The translations under genes were made by a program, and so were the position numbers. A DNA stretch of 64,000 bases, taken from an uncultured Candidatus Saccharibacteria bacterium. Its GTDB lineage: Bacteria > Patescibacteriota > Saccharimonadia > CAILAD01 > JADZBC01. Every line of letters begins with the position of its first letter. Position 1 is the first letter of the stretch. This document shows positions 57,624 to 64,000 of this stretch, one piece after another. The notes under the pieces are model-generated. The model saw only the letters and a program-made list of their open reading frames with translations. It did no database searches and had not been told where the DNA came from. The stretch spans positions 850-64,849 of the forward strand of contig CAYPSN010000002.1 of assembly GCA_964413715.1 (NCBI GenBank). The letters are read 5' to 3'.

Positions 57624-57665
57624 TCTAATCTAAAAACCCCTCGAATGAGGGGTTTTTAGATTAGA
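57624..57665. terminator. bidirectional intrinsic terminator
   Basis: CTAATCTAAAAACCCCTC-GAAT-GAGGGGTTTTTAGATTAG. Confidence 0.7.
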
Positions 57666-58239
57666 AAGCCGGGTCAGCGGTCTCTACGCCTTCCGGCATA
57701 TCCCGCCACGCCACAGGAATTACACATACGGGCTCTATATCCGCATAAGAACGCCATTCGTCACCCCTATGGTGTTCAAAATTTGCCGCATCAAAAACAT
57801 ACACATAGCCCGGCTCCTCCGCATGCCTTGCTGAATCAAGCATGTCGGCAGTGGCATAGAATCGCCATCGGTCGGCAGATCCTCCCCAGCCACTATGACT
57901 ACCTTTGCCTGCAGCACCATGCCCCCTTAATACACCCATAAATATTGCGGGGTCAATGCTCCGAGCCGCACAAACTGCTGGCTCTCCATCTGGAATATTT
58001 TCGCCAGTCTTAGGGTTAAATTGCATTTGCTGTCTTGGTTCGAGATGCGCCAGCTTTCTATCGGTACCATGAAAAACATAATCGCCATTCCTAGCAAGCC
58101 ACTCTAGTGCCTCGCGTCCAGTAACTACGCCCATTTCCACGGCTTTTTCTGGTCCAAGCGCAGCCAATTGAGCTTCAACTCCTAGAGCTACATTACTATC
58201 GCGCCTGATAGGGCCAGGATGTTCTGGCTTTTCTTTCAT
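57661..58239 (-). CDS. hypothetical protein (192 aa)
   Basis: ATG at 58239 (MKEKPEHPG...); no family recognised. Confidence 0.4.
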   Translation of the reverse strand: MKEKPEHPGPIRRDSNVALGVEAQLAALGPEKAVEMGVVTGREALEWLARNGDYVFHGTDRKLAHLEPRQQMQFNPKTGENIPDGEPAVCAARSIDPAIFMGVLRGHGAAGKGSHSGWGGSADRWRFYATADMLDSARHAEEPGYVYVFDAANFEHHRGDEWRSYADIEPVCVIPVAWRDMPEGVETADPAF

Positions 58240-58249
58240 AAATTCTAAC

Positions 58250-59179
58250 CTACCCTTCCTTCTTGCAGAGTGCAATAATCAGATTCTGCGTGGCGCTACT
58301 GCTATCGAGCATGCCAGTCTTGATACTGTAATCAGCTTCTACGATCAGTGCATATGCCCGACGCAAATCATCCAGCGTCATTTTCATAGCTACTTGCATA
58401 GCTTTTTCGGCAGGGTATGGCTTAATGCCAAATTGCTTAGCCCAACCACTTCCCTGGCCAGCGTTATCGTGTGCCAACACAATATTGCGATACTGCCCCA
58501 CGAGCATTGCGATGATCTGCTGGTCAGCCACCCCCTGCCGTACCAAATTCTTGTATGTCGACATAGCTCGATCCAGGTTTTGCGCCACCACCGCGTCAGT
58601 AAGTTCAAAAATCGTCTGCTCTACATTGGCCACCACTAATTCTTCAATTGCTGTCTGTGTAACGTTTTTATCATAAGCCACCAGCTTTTGAATCTCTTGT
58701 GCCAGCTGCCACTGGTCATTACCAATACGCCTGAGTAAGCTCATGGCAAGTGCGGGCGAAATTGTTCCGCCGTGGCGCTGGGCCTGCTGCACTATCCAAT
58801 CACGCAGTGCCACGTCACTAAGCTGCTTAAATTCCTTCGCCTGCTTCAAGGCAGAGAGTTTCTTAAAGTAACTACTACGCCGATCAACCTTCGGCTCCTC
58901 TATAAGTAGCACCGTACTATCGGCAACAGAAGCCAAAACTTCATCAATCTTTTCTACAGCCTTTTTATTGTCACCCAACCCGCGTAGAATGATGAACCGA
59001 CTACTTGCCAACAGCGGCATTACTGCTAGGGCATCGAGCAAGTTGCCCACCGAATGTTCGGCCATATCGATTACTTCTAAGTTTAAATCCCCATCAGATT
59101 TTTTGGCATAATGGCCCTTTAGCCGCTCCACTTCTTGCCGCATCGCGTAGCTGTTTTCGCCATAAAAGAATAGAATCAT
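58250..59179 (-). CDS. holA: DNA polymerase III subunit delta
   Basis: MILFFYGENSYAMRQEVERL N-terminus and overall architecture; 309 aa. Confidence 0.75.
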   Translation of the reverse strand: MILFFYGENSYAMRQEVERLKGHYAKKSDGDLNLEVIDMAEHSVGNLLDALAVMPLLASSRFIILRGLGDNKKAVEKIDEVLASVADSTVLLIEEPKVDRRSSYFKKLSALKQAKEFKQLSDVALRDWIVQQAQRHGGTISPALAMSLLRRIGNDQWQLAQEIQKLVAYDKNVTQTAIEELVVANVEQTIFELTDAVVAQNLDRAMSTYKNLVRQGVADQQIIAMLVGQYRNIVLAHDNAGQGSGWAKQFGIKPYPAEKAMQVAMKMTLDDLRRAYALIVEADYSIKTGMLDSSSATQNLIIALCKKEG

Positions 59180-59194
59180 ATACCTATTGTACCT

Positions 59195-59259
59195 GAAAAT
59201 AAAAAAGGACCCCGCTGGCCAGCTCGCCTCCCGAAGGATTTGAGCCAGCCAGCCGAGTC
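59195..59259 (-). repeat. 65-bp terminator-like repeat, copy 1
   Basis: GAAAATAAAAAAGGACCCCGCTGGCCAGCTCGCCTCCCGAAGGATTTGAGCCAGCCAGCCGAGTC; identical copy at 59871-59935. Confidence 0.8.
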
Positions 59260-59260
59260 A

Positions 59261-59803
59261 TCACCAGCCGTCGGATCGTTCTCTGTGCTCTTCCCACGTC
59301 GACCTGAGGACACCTAGCAGTTCCTCTACGTCGCTTCTGCACTTTGCATCATCCGTCACTACTGCCCAGCCAAGTTCAGCGCATGAACCATCCTCTATGT
59401 TATCCATCGAATAACAAAGCATGAGGGCATCAACGACAACAGTCTTGTCGTCACCTTGTTGGAACACAACGATATAGAGAGTTCCGCCAGCGAACGTTGG
59501 GCCGCATGCCAGCAAGAGGTCGTTCCGCAGCTCAGCGTCGATAAGCTCATCTTCTACACCAACGAACTCGATGACGCTCCTGAACTGATCATCCCGTGCC
59601 AATCTGACTTGGTGGCAATAGCACGGCCCTCGAGGCCGTACATAGGCTTGTATGAAGTCAGCTAGCAGACCAAGCGCTGCCTGCACCAAATCGCACTTGC
59701 GGCAGGTACCAGTTCCGAGCTCGATGCTCTTGTCCCTCCACTGTTCCACATGCACCCTGCGAGAATGAGGGTGCCACGAAACAGCCAAAACTGACCTGTT
59801 CAA
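59261..59803 (-). CDS. hypothetical Cys-rich protein (~180 aa), high GC
   Basis: TTG at 59803 after AAAGGAAA; GTG starts at 59755 and 59749 are also possible. CRKCDL..CYCH cysteine cluster. Confidence 0.35.
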   Translation of the reverse strand: MNRSVLAVSWHPHSRRVHVEQWRDKSIELGTGTCRKCDLVQAALGLLADFIQAYVRPRGPCYCHQVRLARDDQFRSVIEFVGVEDELIDAELRNDLLLACGPTFAGGTLYIVVFQQGDDKTVVVDALMLCYSMDNIEDGSCAELGWAVVTDDAKCRSDVEELLGVLRSTWEEHRERSDGW

Positions 59804-59870
59804 TTTATTTCCTTTCAAAGGCCTATTGGGCAATGTAAGTATGCTGCTGGGGACCAATAAAATCAAGCGT

Positions 59871-59935
59871 GAAAATAAAAAAGGACCCCGCTGGCCAGCT
59901 CGCCTCCCGAAGGATTTGAGCCAGCCAGCCGAGTC
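59871..59935 (-). repeat. 65-bp terminator-like repeat, copy 2
   Basis: Identical to copy 1; 12 nt downstream (minus strand) of the 65-aa ORF stop. Confidence 0.8.
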
Positions 59936-59947
59936 GGCATGTTCCCC

Positions 59948-60145
59948 TCAGTCGGGGAACGGATTGGTGGAGCCGGCCATCGCCAGGTCCATGGAGCCAC
60001 CACCGCGCGGGCGGCGCTGGGGGGTGAGGACGTCCCAGCCCTCACTCAGCTCCGGATGGTCACGGCAGATCTCGCCGTGGGTCTTGCCCTGGGCTCGCAT
60101 CTCCTCGATGCGAGCCGCCTGCTGTCGTGGGCTCAGATCGCCCAT
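59948..60145 (-). CDS. small hypothetical protein (65 aa), overlaps the 3' end of the 696-aa ORF by 85 nt
   Basis: ATG preceded by GGAGAGGAA. Whether this ORF or the C-terminal tail of the large ORF is real cannot be decided from sequence. Confidence 0.3.
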   Translation of the reverse strand: MGDLSPRQQAARIEEMRAQGKTHGEICRDHPELSEGWDVLTPQRRPRGGGSMDLAMAGSTNPFPD

Positions 60146-62150
60146 GTTGGTTCCTCTCCGCCCGTTCGTGGGCTAGGTAGGTAAGCTTGCGGTCGCAAGC
60201 TCGGTGGGTGTATCGCAAACTACGAACCATCTGTTCGGCCCGTAGTACATCTGGATGCCCTGCATCGCTCCTTTCGTATCCTTCGGACAGATCAACGGCC
60301 TCGTGCCAGTACACCTGCGAGGAGGAGTACTCGAGTAGAAGTCTACCAGGCAATTCCGACCCAGTCCAGCTACGAAGATGATTCACCACTGCCAGCGCAA
60401 CGCTGTAGTCAGGGAGACTCACTTCAATAGCCGGGTCGAGTCTAGCAGGCCTCTCACGAGAGAATTCTTCCCCCAACAACCTCAGCTTTCGCCTTAGCCA
60501 GATTGTTGCCGCAGCAAACATTCTATGACGACGAAACTCATCATCATCAAGAAACAGTCGGGCGAGAGCCTCGATTACCTCGCTCTCATGCTCTTCGGGA
60601 TAGATATCATCCCTAAAGCCAAGAAGCTCGAGAGCAAGCCTCAAATCCTGAAATCGCATCAGGCCCAAGGTCTCCTCAGCAGTTAGTTCACCACTTTCCC
60701 CAGAGAATCCAGAGAGCCTCTCCTCAAAGAACTCTTCGAGTAAGTACAGAGGCTCGAGAGTCTCTGCCAGCCAACTGGGCGATTCGAGATAGTACTCGAA
60801 TTGGACCTGCTCTTGTTCGCGCCGGGTAATAGCATCCGTATCCACCGGAAGTTCGGACATGACCTGCATCATAGTCCTTGCTCCCTCTATGGCAGATCTC
60901 AGATCGTCACTCCACTGGACGGTGGATCGCCTGAGCGCTCCACCGTCATCTGCAACAATCGTAAGCCCAGGCAGAACCTTGGCATACTTTTCAAGCAGAG
61001 CGTGTATGGCTGGTATCCCCCAGTCAGCATCGAGCTCAGCCAACGTGCGCTGATATGGATCGAGATGCCACCAGCTCCCGTCGTTTACCTGCAGCACTAC
61101 TCCGTAGTGAAAATCCATGACTTTCACCTGAGAGCGTTGCAAGAAAGTAAGCTCTTTTGAGGACCAGTCATGGAAAGAGGTGCCTGCACCCCCGAGCTCC
61201 TCGAAGGCCTCATGAACTTCGGTATAGACAGGCAGCTTGTCGGCAACCAATCTATCCACCGCCCACTCGATCTGTGACGCAAGAAGCACCGGAGCACCTG
61301 CGAGGCGAGCAAAAGCTAGTAGTGCAATACTCATTCCAAGACAGTTCGGGGTTTGGGTGCCTTCACCCAACTTGCCGTATTGCCTAGGTAGAACGCCCTC
61401 GGCCGGGTAGTCGTTTTCACCAGAGATGCCTTCGAACCACCCATAGTTCGACCTGAGGTGATGCATATCAACCACATAGTTGGCGATAACTTCGTTACCC
61501 TTCTGAACTTCCTTGGGGTCTTCATCCTCGTCGTTGTTCGCAGGATTGCGTGCGTAATCCAATGCCAATTGCGCCAAATCGGCTTCGTCGGCCTTCTCAA
61601 GGCGCCGAAGATGCCGAATGGCTTCTTCGACTTCTTCCGGATAGTAGGTAACGACAATATCGTCAGTCACCTCTACATGCCAACATGGTCCGGTTCGCCC
61701 CCTGGCTGCCTCAAGTTCTTGGTTAGTTTTCGTAATCCTGTAAGCCTTGAGCAACTCGTCATAAACCGTCTGCAGAGCAGTGCGTTGGTCGGCCAGGCTA
61801 AGGGCTTGCCACATAAGGGCGACATTCCTTACAGTATCCGGCAGGCACTCCGCCGCAGCATCTATGAGGCTTTCGCCAAGATGCTCCAGCACGACAGCAT
61901 CAAACGGATCAATTCCGCCAAACACACCAGCCTGCTTAAGCGCTTGGTCTTCTGGGAGGGCATTGAAAAGCTCACCCATTTCGATGTGGCCTGCCCTGTA
62001 GGCGATTGACTCATCGAATTCACCAAGCTGCAAAAGCGAGTAAAGATCGCGACGCTCACGCGTCTCGGCGACCGAATCACAAACTGCTTGTTCGAACGTA
62101 ATGCCGCAGCCCTTTTCAAAGGCCATAGCAACGAGCTCCATGAACTCCAT
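60060..62150 (-). CDS. large acidic hypothetical protein with central transglutaminase-like (papain-fold Cys-His-Asp) core
   Basis: ATG 5 nt after AGGAGGG. NCLGMSIALLAFARLAGAPVLL (Cys), DFHYGVVLQVNDGSWWHLDPY (His..Asp) in the spacing typical of Transglut_core. Confidence 0.5.
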   Translation of the reverse strand: MEFMELVAMAFEKGCGITFEQAVCDSVAETRERRDLYSLLQLGEFDESIAYRAGHIEMGELFNALPEDQALKQAGVFGGIDPFDAVVLEHLGESLIDAAAECLPDTVRNVALMWQALSLADQRTALQTVYDELLKAYRITKTNQELEAARGRTGPCWHVEVTDDIVVTYYPEEVEEAIRHLRRLEKADEADLAQLALDYARNPANNDEDEDPKEVQKGNEVIANYVVDMHHLRSNYGWFEGISGENDYPAEGVLPRQYGKLGEGTQTPNCLGMSIALLAFARLAGAPVLLASQIEWAVDRLVADKLPVYTEVHEAFEELGGAGTSFHDWSSKELTFLQRSQVKVMDFHYGVVLQVNDGSWWHLDPYQRTLAELDADWGIPAIHALLEKYAKVLPGLTIVADDGGALRRSTVQWSDDLRSAIEGARTMMQVMSELPVDTDAITRREQEQVQFEYYLESPSWLAETLEPLYLLEEFFEERLSGFSGESGELTAEETLGLMRFQDLRLALELLGFRDDIYPEEHESEVIEALARLFLDDDEFRRHRMFAAATIWLRRKLRLLGEEFSRERPARLDPAIEVSLPDYSVALAVVNHLRSWTGSELPGRLLLEYSSSQVYWHEAVDLSEGYERSDAGHPDVLRAEQMVRSLRYTHRACDRKLTYLAHERAERNQHGRSEPTTAGGSHRGDASPGQDPRRDLP

Positions 62151-62194
62151 TTGGCCCTCCTGGGCTATGTCAAAGCTGCCCTAAGGCAGTTGCC

Positions 62195-62207
62195 ACCGAA
62201 TTTCGGT
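62195..62207. promoter_or_regulatory. 6-1-6 palindrome ACCGAAtTTCGGT between promoter and RBS of the 696-aa gene (candidate operator)
   Basis: Perfect inverted half-sites; shares the CCGAA core with the microrepeat array upstream of the RHH gene. Confidence 0.4.
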
Positions 62208-62215
62208 ACCGCCGA

Positions 62216-62244
62216 TTTATACCATTTTTCACCTTAAAATACAA
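62216..62244 (-). promoter_or_regulatory. sigma70-like promoter of the 696-aa gene
   Basis: Minus strand TTGTAT-17 nt-TATAAA. Confidence 0.45.
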
Positions 62245-62253
62245 TCATAAGTG

Positions 62254-62318
62254 CAATAAAAAAGGACTCCGCTGGCCAGCTCGTCATCCCTTGGGAATCA
62301 GAGCCAGCCAGCCGAGTC
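62254..62318 (-). repeat. 65-bp terminator-like repeat, diverged copy 3
   Basis: CAATAAAAAAGGACTCCGCTGGCCAGCTCGTCATCCCTTGGGAATCAGAGCCAGCCAGCCGAGTC. Stem arms conserved; loop changed while keeping an inner mini-hairpin. Confidence 0.8.
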
Positions 62319-62319
62319 G

Positions 62320-62571
62320 TCACATGCGAAGTTCGAGCTCCCTTTCGGTGCCATCAGGCGCCCGAACGACGATGATGCATCCCTCCAGGGCACCACACTC
62401 GACAAGCCATCCAAGCGTCTGGAGGGAAGACCTCAAGACCCAGCTTGTATTCACGCCGAATTTGCCTTTCAGACCTTCGAGAATGGCTTTTTCCTCGCGA
62501 TTCACCCTGACCTGCAACGTCTCTTCACGAGACTGCGTGCCAGACAAACTGAGCACCTGGCGATCTGTCAC
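62320..62571 (-). CDS. ribbon-helix-helix DNA-binding protein (MobC/CopG-like), 83 aa
   Basis: Perfect SD AGGAGG-8 nt-GTG at 62571; LQVRVNREEKAILEGLKGKFGVNTSWVLRSSL matches the RHH beta-strand plus two-helix pattern. Confidence 0.5.
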   Translation of the reverse strand: MTDRQVLSLSGTQSREETLQVRVNREEKAILEGLKGKFGVNTSWVLRSSLQTLGWLVECGALEGCIIVVRAPDGTERELELRM

Positions 62572-62637: not shown

Positions 62638-62680
62638 CCCCTAAAACGAAAAGAGGCCCAGCCGGCCCCGCCCTTCCCCC

Positions 62681-62857
62681 GCCGAAGCGTGGAGTTGGTG
62701 CGGGACCGGCCGAAGCCGTTATGCGGTTGGCATGGCATGCATGCTTCCCCGCGGGATGTCGCTGTCGCTGTGAGCCGAAGGCGGATGGCCGACTGCAGAT
62801 GGCGATGCGATGGAACCGAAGGTCGATGGTCGAAGACCGAAGGCCGAAGGTTCGAAG
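62681..62857. repeat. degenerate microrepeat array (CCGAAGG / CGATGG units, at least 8 copies)
   Basis: Copies at 62681, 62710, 62775, 62815, 62829, 62837, 62844 and 62852, in ~500 bp of visibly GC-rich sequence without a convincing ORF, upstream of the RHH gene. Confidence 0.6.
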
Positions 62858-63267
62858 GCTCCTGTAACCCTGGGCAGGGGGCCGTAAGCACACTCGAGCG
62901 CTCGAGTCAGGAGCTTTACCTGCTCCAACCACGTCCTTGGACACCCGGCTTTCGCCAGGAGGATGTAGCTTGCCTACGTATCAACCTACGTGGTGATCCG
63001 CGGACCGTTCCACTCCACCATTCTGCACACGGCATCAGGCTTTAGGTTAATTCTCGTCTTTCCGAGCTGTCCGCCAGTCTGTCTGGCACATCACCCCTAG
63101 CCGAAGCGTGAGGGCGAACTTGTGATTAATTTTCCACGTGTTGTCCGGCTTTTTATTTTGCGGGACAAAGAATATTATAGCCTACGAAGACTTTTTGTCA
63201 ATATCTATTTGAGCTTCTGGCACTTGGGGCAAATATGTGTGCCGCGGCCAGCCAATCATGACTATTA

Positions 63268-63936
63268 TTAACCTTGTGATTTGTACTGCTCTATTGCCTC
63301 GGATATTCGCACCCTCTCAGGCAATTCCTGATTAAGTTTTGCCATCTCAGAGCCTGGCACTATCGTAAGCTTGATGAGTTCGTCGGCGTCGCCCCCTGTG
63401 GCAATTATTTGATCAATCGTTTCGTCACTCAAGCTATATGTGTCACGTAGAATACCCCTACTCGCCTCCTGAGTTTCTGTCGAAAATAATGCCCCGATCA
63501 CTTCACCCAAGCGAGCTCGAGCTGGATTCGGACCTTGGGGCTCTTTGCCTGTTAATCCTGCTACAATCTCATAAGTAGCCTCTTTACCCGAACTACCAAA
63601 TGGGTCTTTGAGCTCATGAATATCGTCATCTACAGCCCAATCACGAACTCGAGACTCAGGGTATACCGCCAGGGCGTCCGATTCATCAACTACCATTGTG
63701 TCGGGATCAACACCCTGTGGAGTACGACCGTCTGCGTCCATGAGCTGAATAATGTCTTTCGGGTGGGTTATATAAGCCCCTACCTTAAATGCCTTCCCTG
63801 TACCACCTTTAAAAGCCTTTTCTTTCGCATTACGACTCTGCCTTGCGCCACCGCTGGCTTTTTCACGTAGTTCATTATATTCATGCATTAAAGCGCGTGC
63901 GGCCAGGATATTCTGCTTTTGTTCTGCCGTGACCAC
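63268..63936 (-). CDS. hypothetical protein; frame stays open to the window end (start either GTG 63936 or beyond 64000)
   Basis: No in-frame stop between 63936 and 64000; AAGG 10 nt upstream of the GTG; no family recognised. Confidence 0.4.
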   Translation of the reverse strand: MVTAEQKQNILAARALMHEYNELREKASGGARQSRNAKEKAFKGGTGKAFKVGAYITHPKDIIQLMDADGRTPQGVDPDTMVVDESDALAVYPESRVRDWAVDDDIHELKDPFGSSGKEATYEIVAGLTGKEPQGPNPARARLGEVIGALFSTETQEASRGILRDTYSLSDETIDQIIATGGDADELIKLTIVPGSEMAKLNQELPERVRISEAIEQYKSQG

Positions 63937-64000
63937 ATCAGGATACCTTCCGAGTTTCGGGTCAGCCCTGCGTTCGTCTGAGTTCCAGCCCTCTAATAAG

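Follow-up and report, generated by a model that had tools for sequence, protein, structure and literature searches.

A divergent transglutaminase-like enzyme and its small partner gene as a candidate toxin-antitoxin-like module of Saccharibacteria

What is the role of a large acidic protein that matches no model in the domain databases, and that is encoded among strain-specific genes? The question is raised by a 64,000-nt stretch of DNA (the window) from an uncultured Candidatus Saccharibacteria bacterium (GenBank assembly GCA_964413715.1, contig CAYPSN010000002.1, positions 850 to 64,849), in which a gene encoding a protein of 696 aa overlaps a second that encodes 65 aa. Saccharibacteria and other members of the candidate phyla radiation (CPR) have small genomes, in which the majority of accessory genes are without assigned function. 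The best overall explanation of this locus is that the large protein is an enzyme and the small one its partner, together constituting a self-contained two-gene toxin-antitoxin-like module built on a thiol acyl-enzyme. We assign a probability of about 0.6 to this explanation.

The large gene occupies positions 60060..62150 on the minus strand and begins with an ATG codon. It appears in the list of open reading frames (ORFs), and a family of homologues, their alignment and a structural model support it further; the gene is real and belongs to a genome of the Saccharibacteria/CPR type. The polynucleotide phosphorylase (PNPase) encoded in the window is 66-68% identical to proteins named Candidatus Saccharibacteria or Patescibacteria in their sources. 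The 696-aa product is acidic, with an isoelectric point of 4.67 and a total of 125 Asp and Glu residues compared with 68 Lys and Arg. A first-pass annotation of the sequence had reported this acidic ORF, with two motifs taken to be parts of a transglutaminase-like Cys/His/Asp core and with no other recognizable domain. Both motifs are present, NCLGMSIALLAFARLAG as residues 269-285 and FHYGVVLQVNDGSWWHLDPY as residues 347-366, and the remainder of the description was borne out by the searches. A Pfam scan of the protein gave nothing at E<=1, and there were zero matches to it in NCBIfam, PADLOC, PHROGs or the sequences of the PDB. PADLOC-DB 2.0 contains no family for the large protein, its partner or four neighbours. 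A word-indexed protein search, performed with the single query and with a 40-sequence profile, returned only the query itself.

Relatives were found when 1.84 billion cluster representatives were searched exhaustively with HMMER. At a cut-off of E<=1e-3 the enzyme family comprises 181 clusters, 22 of which are retained at E<=1e-30. Most members are of ~540 aa within a range of 540-700 aa, and the overall identity within the family is ~20-35%. The family is very rare. The ten clusters that were looked up are all singletons, a scan of genomes for relatives yielded one locus and a scan of metagenomes two, and no viral relative was found in IMG/VR contigs or among BFVD structures. The closest homologous locus lies in a metagenome-assembled genome of Ca. 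Saccharibacteria. The sole source name found for a member is 'hypothetical protein', and none of the family models in Pfam, NCBIfam, PADLOC and PHROGs covers the enzyme. Full-text literature searches, in which transglutaminase-like was combined with Saccharibacteria, Patescibacteria, antitoxin and anti-phage, found no description of the family.

Conservation within the family is greatest between residues 245 and 440 of the query. The residues that are invariant in an alignment of 40 sequences are G92, P255, C270, G272, H348, D364, P394 and G395. Amongst these C270, H348 and D364 form the candidate catalytic triad; their codons were checked, and lie at 61341-61343, 61107-61109 and 61059-61061 respectively on the minus strand. 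When the best 150 representatives were taken, all three residues were present in 147 of the 147 that cover those columns, the exceptions being fragments. Invariance of the triad in proteins that are so dissimilar overall points to catalysis, and not to recent common descent. The first-pass annotation had stated that loss of these residues in homologues would count against its reading; on this count the reading is not refuted. The same observation bears on the suggestion that the protein might be catalytically dead, i.e. a menin-like scaffold that has kept the fold only. An unbroken Cys, His and Asp at this level of divergence is the signature of selection on catalysis, and we find this suggestion scarcely credible.

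Evidence on the nature of the core comes from both profiles and structural modelling. Matches to Transglut_core that fall below threshold were obtained for eight of the 40 homologues, the best with E 2.7e-4, and no other Pfam family recurs amongst them. The Pfam comparison that had been proposed at the outset was thus negative for the query and weakly positive for its relatives. In homologue P0002 the match has a score of 13.4 bits and aligns residues 263-362 with positions 53-108 of the 108 in the profile, so that it spans the Cys and Asp motifs and everything between them. A single, non-significant hhalign alignment of the family with the core of transglutaminase 2 (TG2; residues 274-402) paired Cys270 with the catalytic Cys277 of TG2. 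With the 40-sequence alignment as input, AlphaFold2 gave a model that has a mean predicted local distance difference test score (pLDDT) of 82.9 and a predicted template modelling score of 0.82, compared with a pLDDT of only 36 for a single-sequence run. In the model Cys270 opens a helix (270-284), followed by a strand (288-295) and an insert of two helices (297-341). Three further strands follow (349-354, 360-364 and 369-373), and His348 and Asp364, which are 16 residues apart, are predicted to lie on successive strands. As modelled, this order of helix and sheet is that of the papain/transglutaminase topology. The best matches of the model in Foldseek are menin, TG2, factor XIII, TG3, protein 4.2, arylamine N-acetyltransferases (NATs) and a putative cysteine protease (3isr). 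Menin, the transglutaminases and the NATs belong to one papain-like fold cluster (PMC10318531). The lines of evidence agree with one another while none is individually strong, and the fold evidence is consistent but weak. Taken with the invariant triad, they make it very probable that the protein belongs to a divergent, unannotated family of the transglutaminase-like/papain-fold superfamily, with the predicted fold and predicted catalytic competence. On this point the original assignment has been upheld.

The core is embedded in a larger structure. A helical domain (residues ~1-150) and a variable acidic linker (~150-245) precede the catalytic core (~250-405), which is encoded by 60936..61403 on the minus strand and was delimited by the conservation of the triad, the secondary structure of the model and the sub-threshold Transglut_core matches. 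It is followed by a disordered insert (437-505), a second helical domain (~514-668) and a non-conserved tail (669-696). The protein has no signal-peptide-like or membrane segment and its N-terminus is acidic; from the absence of such segments it is predicted to be soluble and cytoplasmic. Effectors commonly contain transglutaminase- and papain-like domains, and the context of a secreted effector or toxin had been put forward at the first pass; the character of the N-terminus does not agree with this. A secreted or injected effector, acting for example against the host of an epibiont, would have the small gene as its immunity protein or chaperone. The small gene is indeed downstream, in the usual position of an immunity gene, and the bacterium is of the CPR type. 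Yet secretion and trafficking domains are lacking along with the signal peptide and membrane segment, as are N-terminal domains of the polymorphic-toxin type, and no secretion-system genes are conserved beside the module in any of 12 loci. We regard an effector as highly improbable.

The 65-aa ORF lies at 59948..60145 on the minus strand. An ORF matching the profile of this partner is found directly downstream of, or overlapping, the large gene in all 12 distinct loci. These include loci that were not used to build the profile, i.e. L011 and L012 (E 1e-13 and 1e-14) and L015 and L016 (1e-16 and 2e-6). The two genes overlap or stand 5-22 nt apart in the loci examined. Here the overlap of the two ORFs is real and measures 86 nt when the stop codon is included, in place of the 85 nt first given. 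The partner has its own Shine-Dalgarno sequence, GGAGAGGA (60152..60159, minus strand), located 6 nt before its ATG and within the 3' end of the large ORF. Judged from this arrangement and its recurrence, the ORF is a real, conserved partner gene that is translationally coupled to the large gene. A fusion of partner and enzyme was searched for and not found.

This bears on the C-terminus of the large protein, which had been thought ambiguous. The conserved part stops near residue 668, and the last ~28 residues are non-conserved and have low confidence in the model because the frame runs on into the partner, a genuine downstream gene with its own Shine-Dalgarno sequence. The question is therefore settled. 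C-terminal tails rich in Gly, Arg and Ser like that of the query are also seen in homologues P0004, P0005, P0006, P0009, P0025 and P0038; these are probably an out-of-frame reading into the overlapping partner gene.

A conserved helical head makes up residues ~8-40 of the partner, with the sequence pattern ...G-x-x-x-x-I-x-x-x-P-E/D-L-x-x-G... that corresponds to helix-G-x-helix-P-[ED]-L-x-x-G-helix. After a short linker there is a conserved motif R-P-x-R-G-[GSA]-G-[STAP] within a disordered tail, and then a variable end of 10-25 residues. In the present partner the motif is RRPRGGGS (residues 44-51). R-G-[GSA]-G-[STAP] is found in 7 of 10 complete partner sequences. Near variants occur in L004 (R-P-P-G-T) and L010 (L-S-G-S-T / R-G-G-S-R), and the partner at L015 carries two heads.

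This anatomy suggests the main rival to our explanation, in which the partner would be the substrate of the enzyme. It would be a ribosomally synthesized precursor or tag that is cut or transferred at the R-G-x-G-S site, with the helical head serving for recognition. The enzyme would then act like the double-glycine leader peptidases or the proteases of ubiquitin-like proteins, releasing or conjugating one part of the partner. A conserved Arg-Gly-x-Gly-Ser/Ala/Pro in a disordered stretch, followed by a short and highly variable C-terminal piece, is what such a substrate might look like; the genes are strictly paired and translationally coupled, and leader peptidases such as McjB are among the enzymes of papain fold (PMC10318531). 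On the other hand, no genes for a cyclase, a RiPP recognition element (RRE; RiPP, ribosomally synthesized and post-translationally modified peptide), an ABC exporter or E1/E2-like proteins are conserved nearby. The variable tails are neither Cys-rich nor otherwise bacteriocin-like, the partner at L006 is without the Gly motif altogether, and the head is not a beta-grasp fold as judged by its sequence. We consider a substrate role unlikely, although it deserves serious attention. A bolder form of the same idea is an ATP-independent system for processing or tagging of small proteins in CPR bacteria. The enzyme would recognize the head of the partner and form a thioester at a ubiquitin-like Arg-Gly-Gly(-Gly) site. 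The variable C-terminal peptide might then be released, or the head might be transferred to lysine residues of targets without E1 or E2, with an outcome like that of a sortase, a transglutaminase or ubiquitin. To this we give little credence. The interest of the system would be broader if the partner were a substrate with a ubiquitin-like RGG site.

The signals that surround the two genes are consistent with their being expressed together. The Shine-Dalgarno sequence AGGAGGG of the large gene (62155..62161, minus strand) is present and good, although it lies 4 nt before the ATG and not 5 nt as had been stated. A probable sigma-70 promoter can be read at 62216..62244 on the same strand, with a -35 element TTGTAT (62239-62244), a 17-nt spacer and a TG-extended -10 element TATAAA (62216-62221). 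It was absent from the listing of a consensus scan; a -10-like box is found at the matching relative position upstream of homologues. The promoter is plausible and probably of moderate strength, weaker than had been claimed, so that 'unusually strong' is an apt description of neither it nor the expression signals as a whole. The 5' leader also contains a 6-1-6 palindrome, ACCGAAATTCGGT (ACCGAA-A-TTCGGT; 62195..62207), that had been described as an operator. The palindrome is certainly there, but such a role is not supported. The window contains 30 palindromes of this form, giving ~0.05 expected in the 104-nt leader, which is marginal, and the regions upstream of homologues have no conserved counterpart of it. 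A different element of the leader is shared more widely. The sequence TTGACAT (CCTTGACA; 62167..62173, minus strand) is part of a motif CC[CT]TGA(A)CA found 10-25 nt upstream of the Shine-Dalgarno sequence of the large gene in six of eight loci, namely the present one, L004, L007, L008, L009 and L010. It is shared although the large proteins are just ~25-35% identical, and might serve in regulation or form part of a leader structure.

An intrinsic terminator at 59873..59935 (minus strand), which is the copy T2 (59870-59940) of a repeat, begins 12 nt past the stop codon of the partner. It comprises an 18-bp stem with an apical stem-loop, followed by U6; the minimum free energy is -38.3 kcal/mol, with a z-score of -4.0. 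Since the partner stop codon is followed by this hairpin and U6 tract, the unit comprises the promoter, the large gene, the partner gene and the terminator. As read from the sequence it is one self-contained operon, closed by a strong hairpin.

Between fpg and holA there is an insertion hot spot, of which the operon is strain-specific cargo. The interval extends from ~59195 to beyond 64000 (L001:7362-12956), the fpg gene being just outside the window. In the genome of the window it contains ~5.6 kb, made up of a 497-aa gene, an RNA, a cassette with a ribbon-helix-helix (RHH) protein, the transglutaminase-like pair and a 162-aa cassette. Related genomes differ markedly at this site. In L020, where PNPase is 86% identical, the interval is empty and the genes are 15 nt apart. 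In L018 (PNPase 87% identical) there is ~1.6 kb containing a non-coding RNA, a 105-aa gene with a hairpin and a 140-aa gene, and in L013 (holA at least 90% identical) ~1.15 kb containing a 196-aa gene with a hairpin plus the 140-aa gene. The module is absent from the site in all three, and the GC content of the pair is 0.54 compared with 0.487 for the window. The description of a foreign-looking cassette was thus well founded. The neighbouring genes are different at every homologous locus; one such locus adjoins genes for HsdR, Shedu SduA_C and PDDEXK proteins.

This distribution bears on a further alternative, in which the enzyme is a NAT-like acyltransferase or amidase acting on small molecules, with a housekeeping or metabolic role, and the small gene encodes its transcriptional regulator. 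NAT structures are present among the weak Foldseek matches, and the partner has a helix-Gly-helix-Pro-x-Leu-helix pattern like that of a helix-turn-helix protein, with one weak match to DUF433. A metabolic role is difficult to reconcile with a sporadic, strain-specific occurrence and a site that is empty in close relatives, with the lack of metabolic genes conserved around the module, and with a family so rare that every cluster looked up was a singleton. We think this alternative improbable.

We therefore return to the toxin-antitoxin-like module. By analogy with the chemistry of the superfamily, Cys270 would attack an amide or peptide carbonyl to generate a thioester acyl-enzyme, with His348 acting as general base oriented by Asp364. 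The thioester would then be resolved by water if the enzyme is a peptidase or amidase, or by an amine if it is a transamidase. The disordered R-P-x-R-G-x-G-S tail of the partner could sit in the catalytic cleft and restrain the enzyme, in the manner of an inhibitor or pseudo-substrate. DNA binding and autoregulation of the operon are possible functions of the helical head. Were the partner lost or cleaved, the enzyme would be released to modify proteins of the cell or of an invader. The pair has the organization expected of a toxin-antitoxin module, i.e. adjacent, co-directional and tightly coupled genes that form an autonomous operon, together with a sporadic and mobile distribution. Taken alone, the step to a mobile conflict module of this kind is drawn from anatomy and context, and we make it tentatively, rating it somewhat short of an even chance.

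A number of results weigh against the explanation as a whole. At the level of the fold, the query itself has no match in Pfam, none of the 40 homologues reaches the Transglut_core gathering score of 23 bits, and the family profile has no match amongst the PDB sequences. The hhalign comparison with TG2 gave E 0.25, which is not significant, and all the Foldseek matches have E>=0.48. At the level of the module, PADLOC contains no match to it, the putative toxin is of unusually large size, and its gene precedes that of the partner in the operon. The DUF433 match on the head of the partner (E 0.0063) is below the gathering score and was obtained for one of seven members, and a search of the PDB with the partner profile gave only chance matches and did not recover 2GA1. 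The resemblance of the head to DUF433 is thus a lead, and not membership.

Two further copies of the terminator repeat lie in the same island. T3 (62255..62323, minus strand) closes the upstream cassette that encodes an RHH-like protein of 83 aa, and marks the upstream boundary of the module. T1 (59194..59264, minus strand) closes the downstream 162-aa cassette, beside holA. The hairpin is of ~70 nt; all three copies in the window are in this island, where each immediately follows the stop codon of a different minus-strand cassette. T1 and T2 are 100% identical over 66 nt, while T3 has the same stem and a different apical loop. The related genomes have one hairpin copy at the same hot spot. 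These repeats may act as recombination points for the gain and loss of cassettes. We also considered whether the cassettes might be those of an integron. This was rejected on two grounds: there is no member of the integrase family in the 22 kb around, and the U-tracts of the hairpins are typical of terminators.

The 83-aa gene (62320-62571, minus strand) has its own Shine-Dalgarno sequence and terminator. Its product has a weak match to CopG/RHH_1 (E 0.13) that falls on a typical strand-helix-helix stretch, and on this basis it looks like an orphan cassette of antitoxin or regulator type. It is not kept beside the homologues of the large gene. The 162-aa gene (59261-59749) and the 497-aa gene (63268-64000, continuing beyond the window; L001:7390-8883), both on the minus strand, are without family assignment. 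Comparison of their products with Pfam, PADLOC, PHROGs and NCBIfam revealed no family, and for the 497-aa protein only chance-level matches to glycosyltransferases. A 46-nt piece of the 3' region of fpg is duplicated after the 497-aa gene. Directly downstream of holA is a gene of 192-204 aa (57661-58275, minus strand) without a family match. It is found at the same place in L020, where it has 192 aa, and is probably a conserved, lineage-specific core gene.

The island also contains a candidate structured non-coding RNA of ~520 nt (~62648-63172, minus strand), with a promoter at 63174-63201 and a terminator at 62653-62669. The promoter is a perfect TTGACA-16-TATAAT and the terminator a hairpin followed by U residues, and there are seven CTTCGG motifs (i.e. 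of the UUCG-loop type) in 425 nt of this strand. There is no convincing ORF, and Rfam 15 gave no match even at E<=10. A homologue at L018:2905-3535 is 79-81% conserved, including the promoter and terminator. In a consensus fold of the two sequences no base pair is broken by the substitutions, and there are four compensatory double changes in the most diverged helix. The RNA is missing from the empty fpg|holA site of L020, and is therefore accessory and not housekeeping.

How does the pair compare with known systems? The transglutaminase-like superfamily, which was reportedly described by Makarova, Aravind and Koonin in 1999, is very large and well known. It is represented by Transglut_core (PF01841) and constitutes cluster III of the papain-like folds (PMC10318531). 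The 696-aa protein has its Cys, His and Asp in the same order as the members of the superfamily, and the local motifs agree as well: C-x-G starts a helix, (F)H lies on a strand and W-x-x-x-D-P on the strand that follows. It differs in the 78 residues, including a two-helix insert, that separate Cys from His, in the large and conserved helical domains that flank the core, and in its obligatory small partner gene. Unlike members of PF01841 it falls below every curated threshold, and is not covered by PF01841 or NCBIfam. Comparison with menin (PF05053; PDB 3re2/3u84), a scaffold protein of eukaryotes that in humans is reported to be without the catalytic Cys, gives a sequence identity of 13% and no sign of a common function. 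The arylamine N-acetyltransferases and amide synthases (PF00797) share the Cys-His-Asp fold cluster with the present protein, and NATs are among its weak Foldseek matches. In contrast to them it has no match by sequence profile, a different domain context and no associated biosynthetic genes.

McjB, the split B1-B2 proteins and the C39 leader peptidases resemble the present system in that a cysteine enzyme of papain/transglutaminase fold adjoins a short ORF. Like the substrates of leader peptidases, the short ORF here has a conserved N-terminal part, a motif of small residues and a variable C-terminus. Unlike those systems, however, the enzyme is 3-4 times larger, and the short ORF is downstream of the enzyme gene and overlaps it. 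A lasso-peptide or other RiPP cluster was considered and rejected, as an Asn-synthetase-like cyclase, a PqqD-like RRE and a C39 ABC exporter are absent from the called neighbours at the 11 loci with gene tables.

The closest parallel in organization is with the type II modules formed by PIN nucleases and DUF433/COG2442 proteins, the latter being predicted three-helix DNA-binding antitoxins (PMC2701414). Like these, the present pair consists of two translationally coupled genes and is mobile, and the small partner has a helical head and a disordered tail, with one weak DUF433 match on the head. Unlike them, the large protein is a cysteine enzyme of 540-700 aa and not a PIN nuclease, and the large gene comes first. 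The pair thus offers a candidate, open to experimental test, for a new module of the conflict or toxin-antitoxin-like type in CPR bacteria or, less probably, for a protein-processing system. Set against so large a superfamily, the enzyme is a sound addition but an incremental one. Its novelty lies in a distinct architecture, in an obligatory partner that carries a Gly-rich motif, and in a mobility within CPR genomes that resembles that of cassettes. Together these define an unannotated family with an invariant thiol triad, an obligatory small partner and the behaviour of a mobile two-gene cassette; as no Pfam or NCBIfam model covers its members at present, it could enter the domain databases in its own right.

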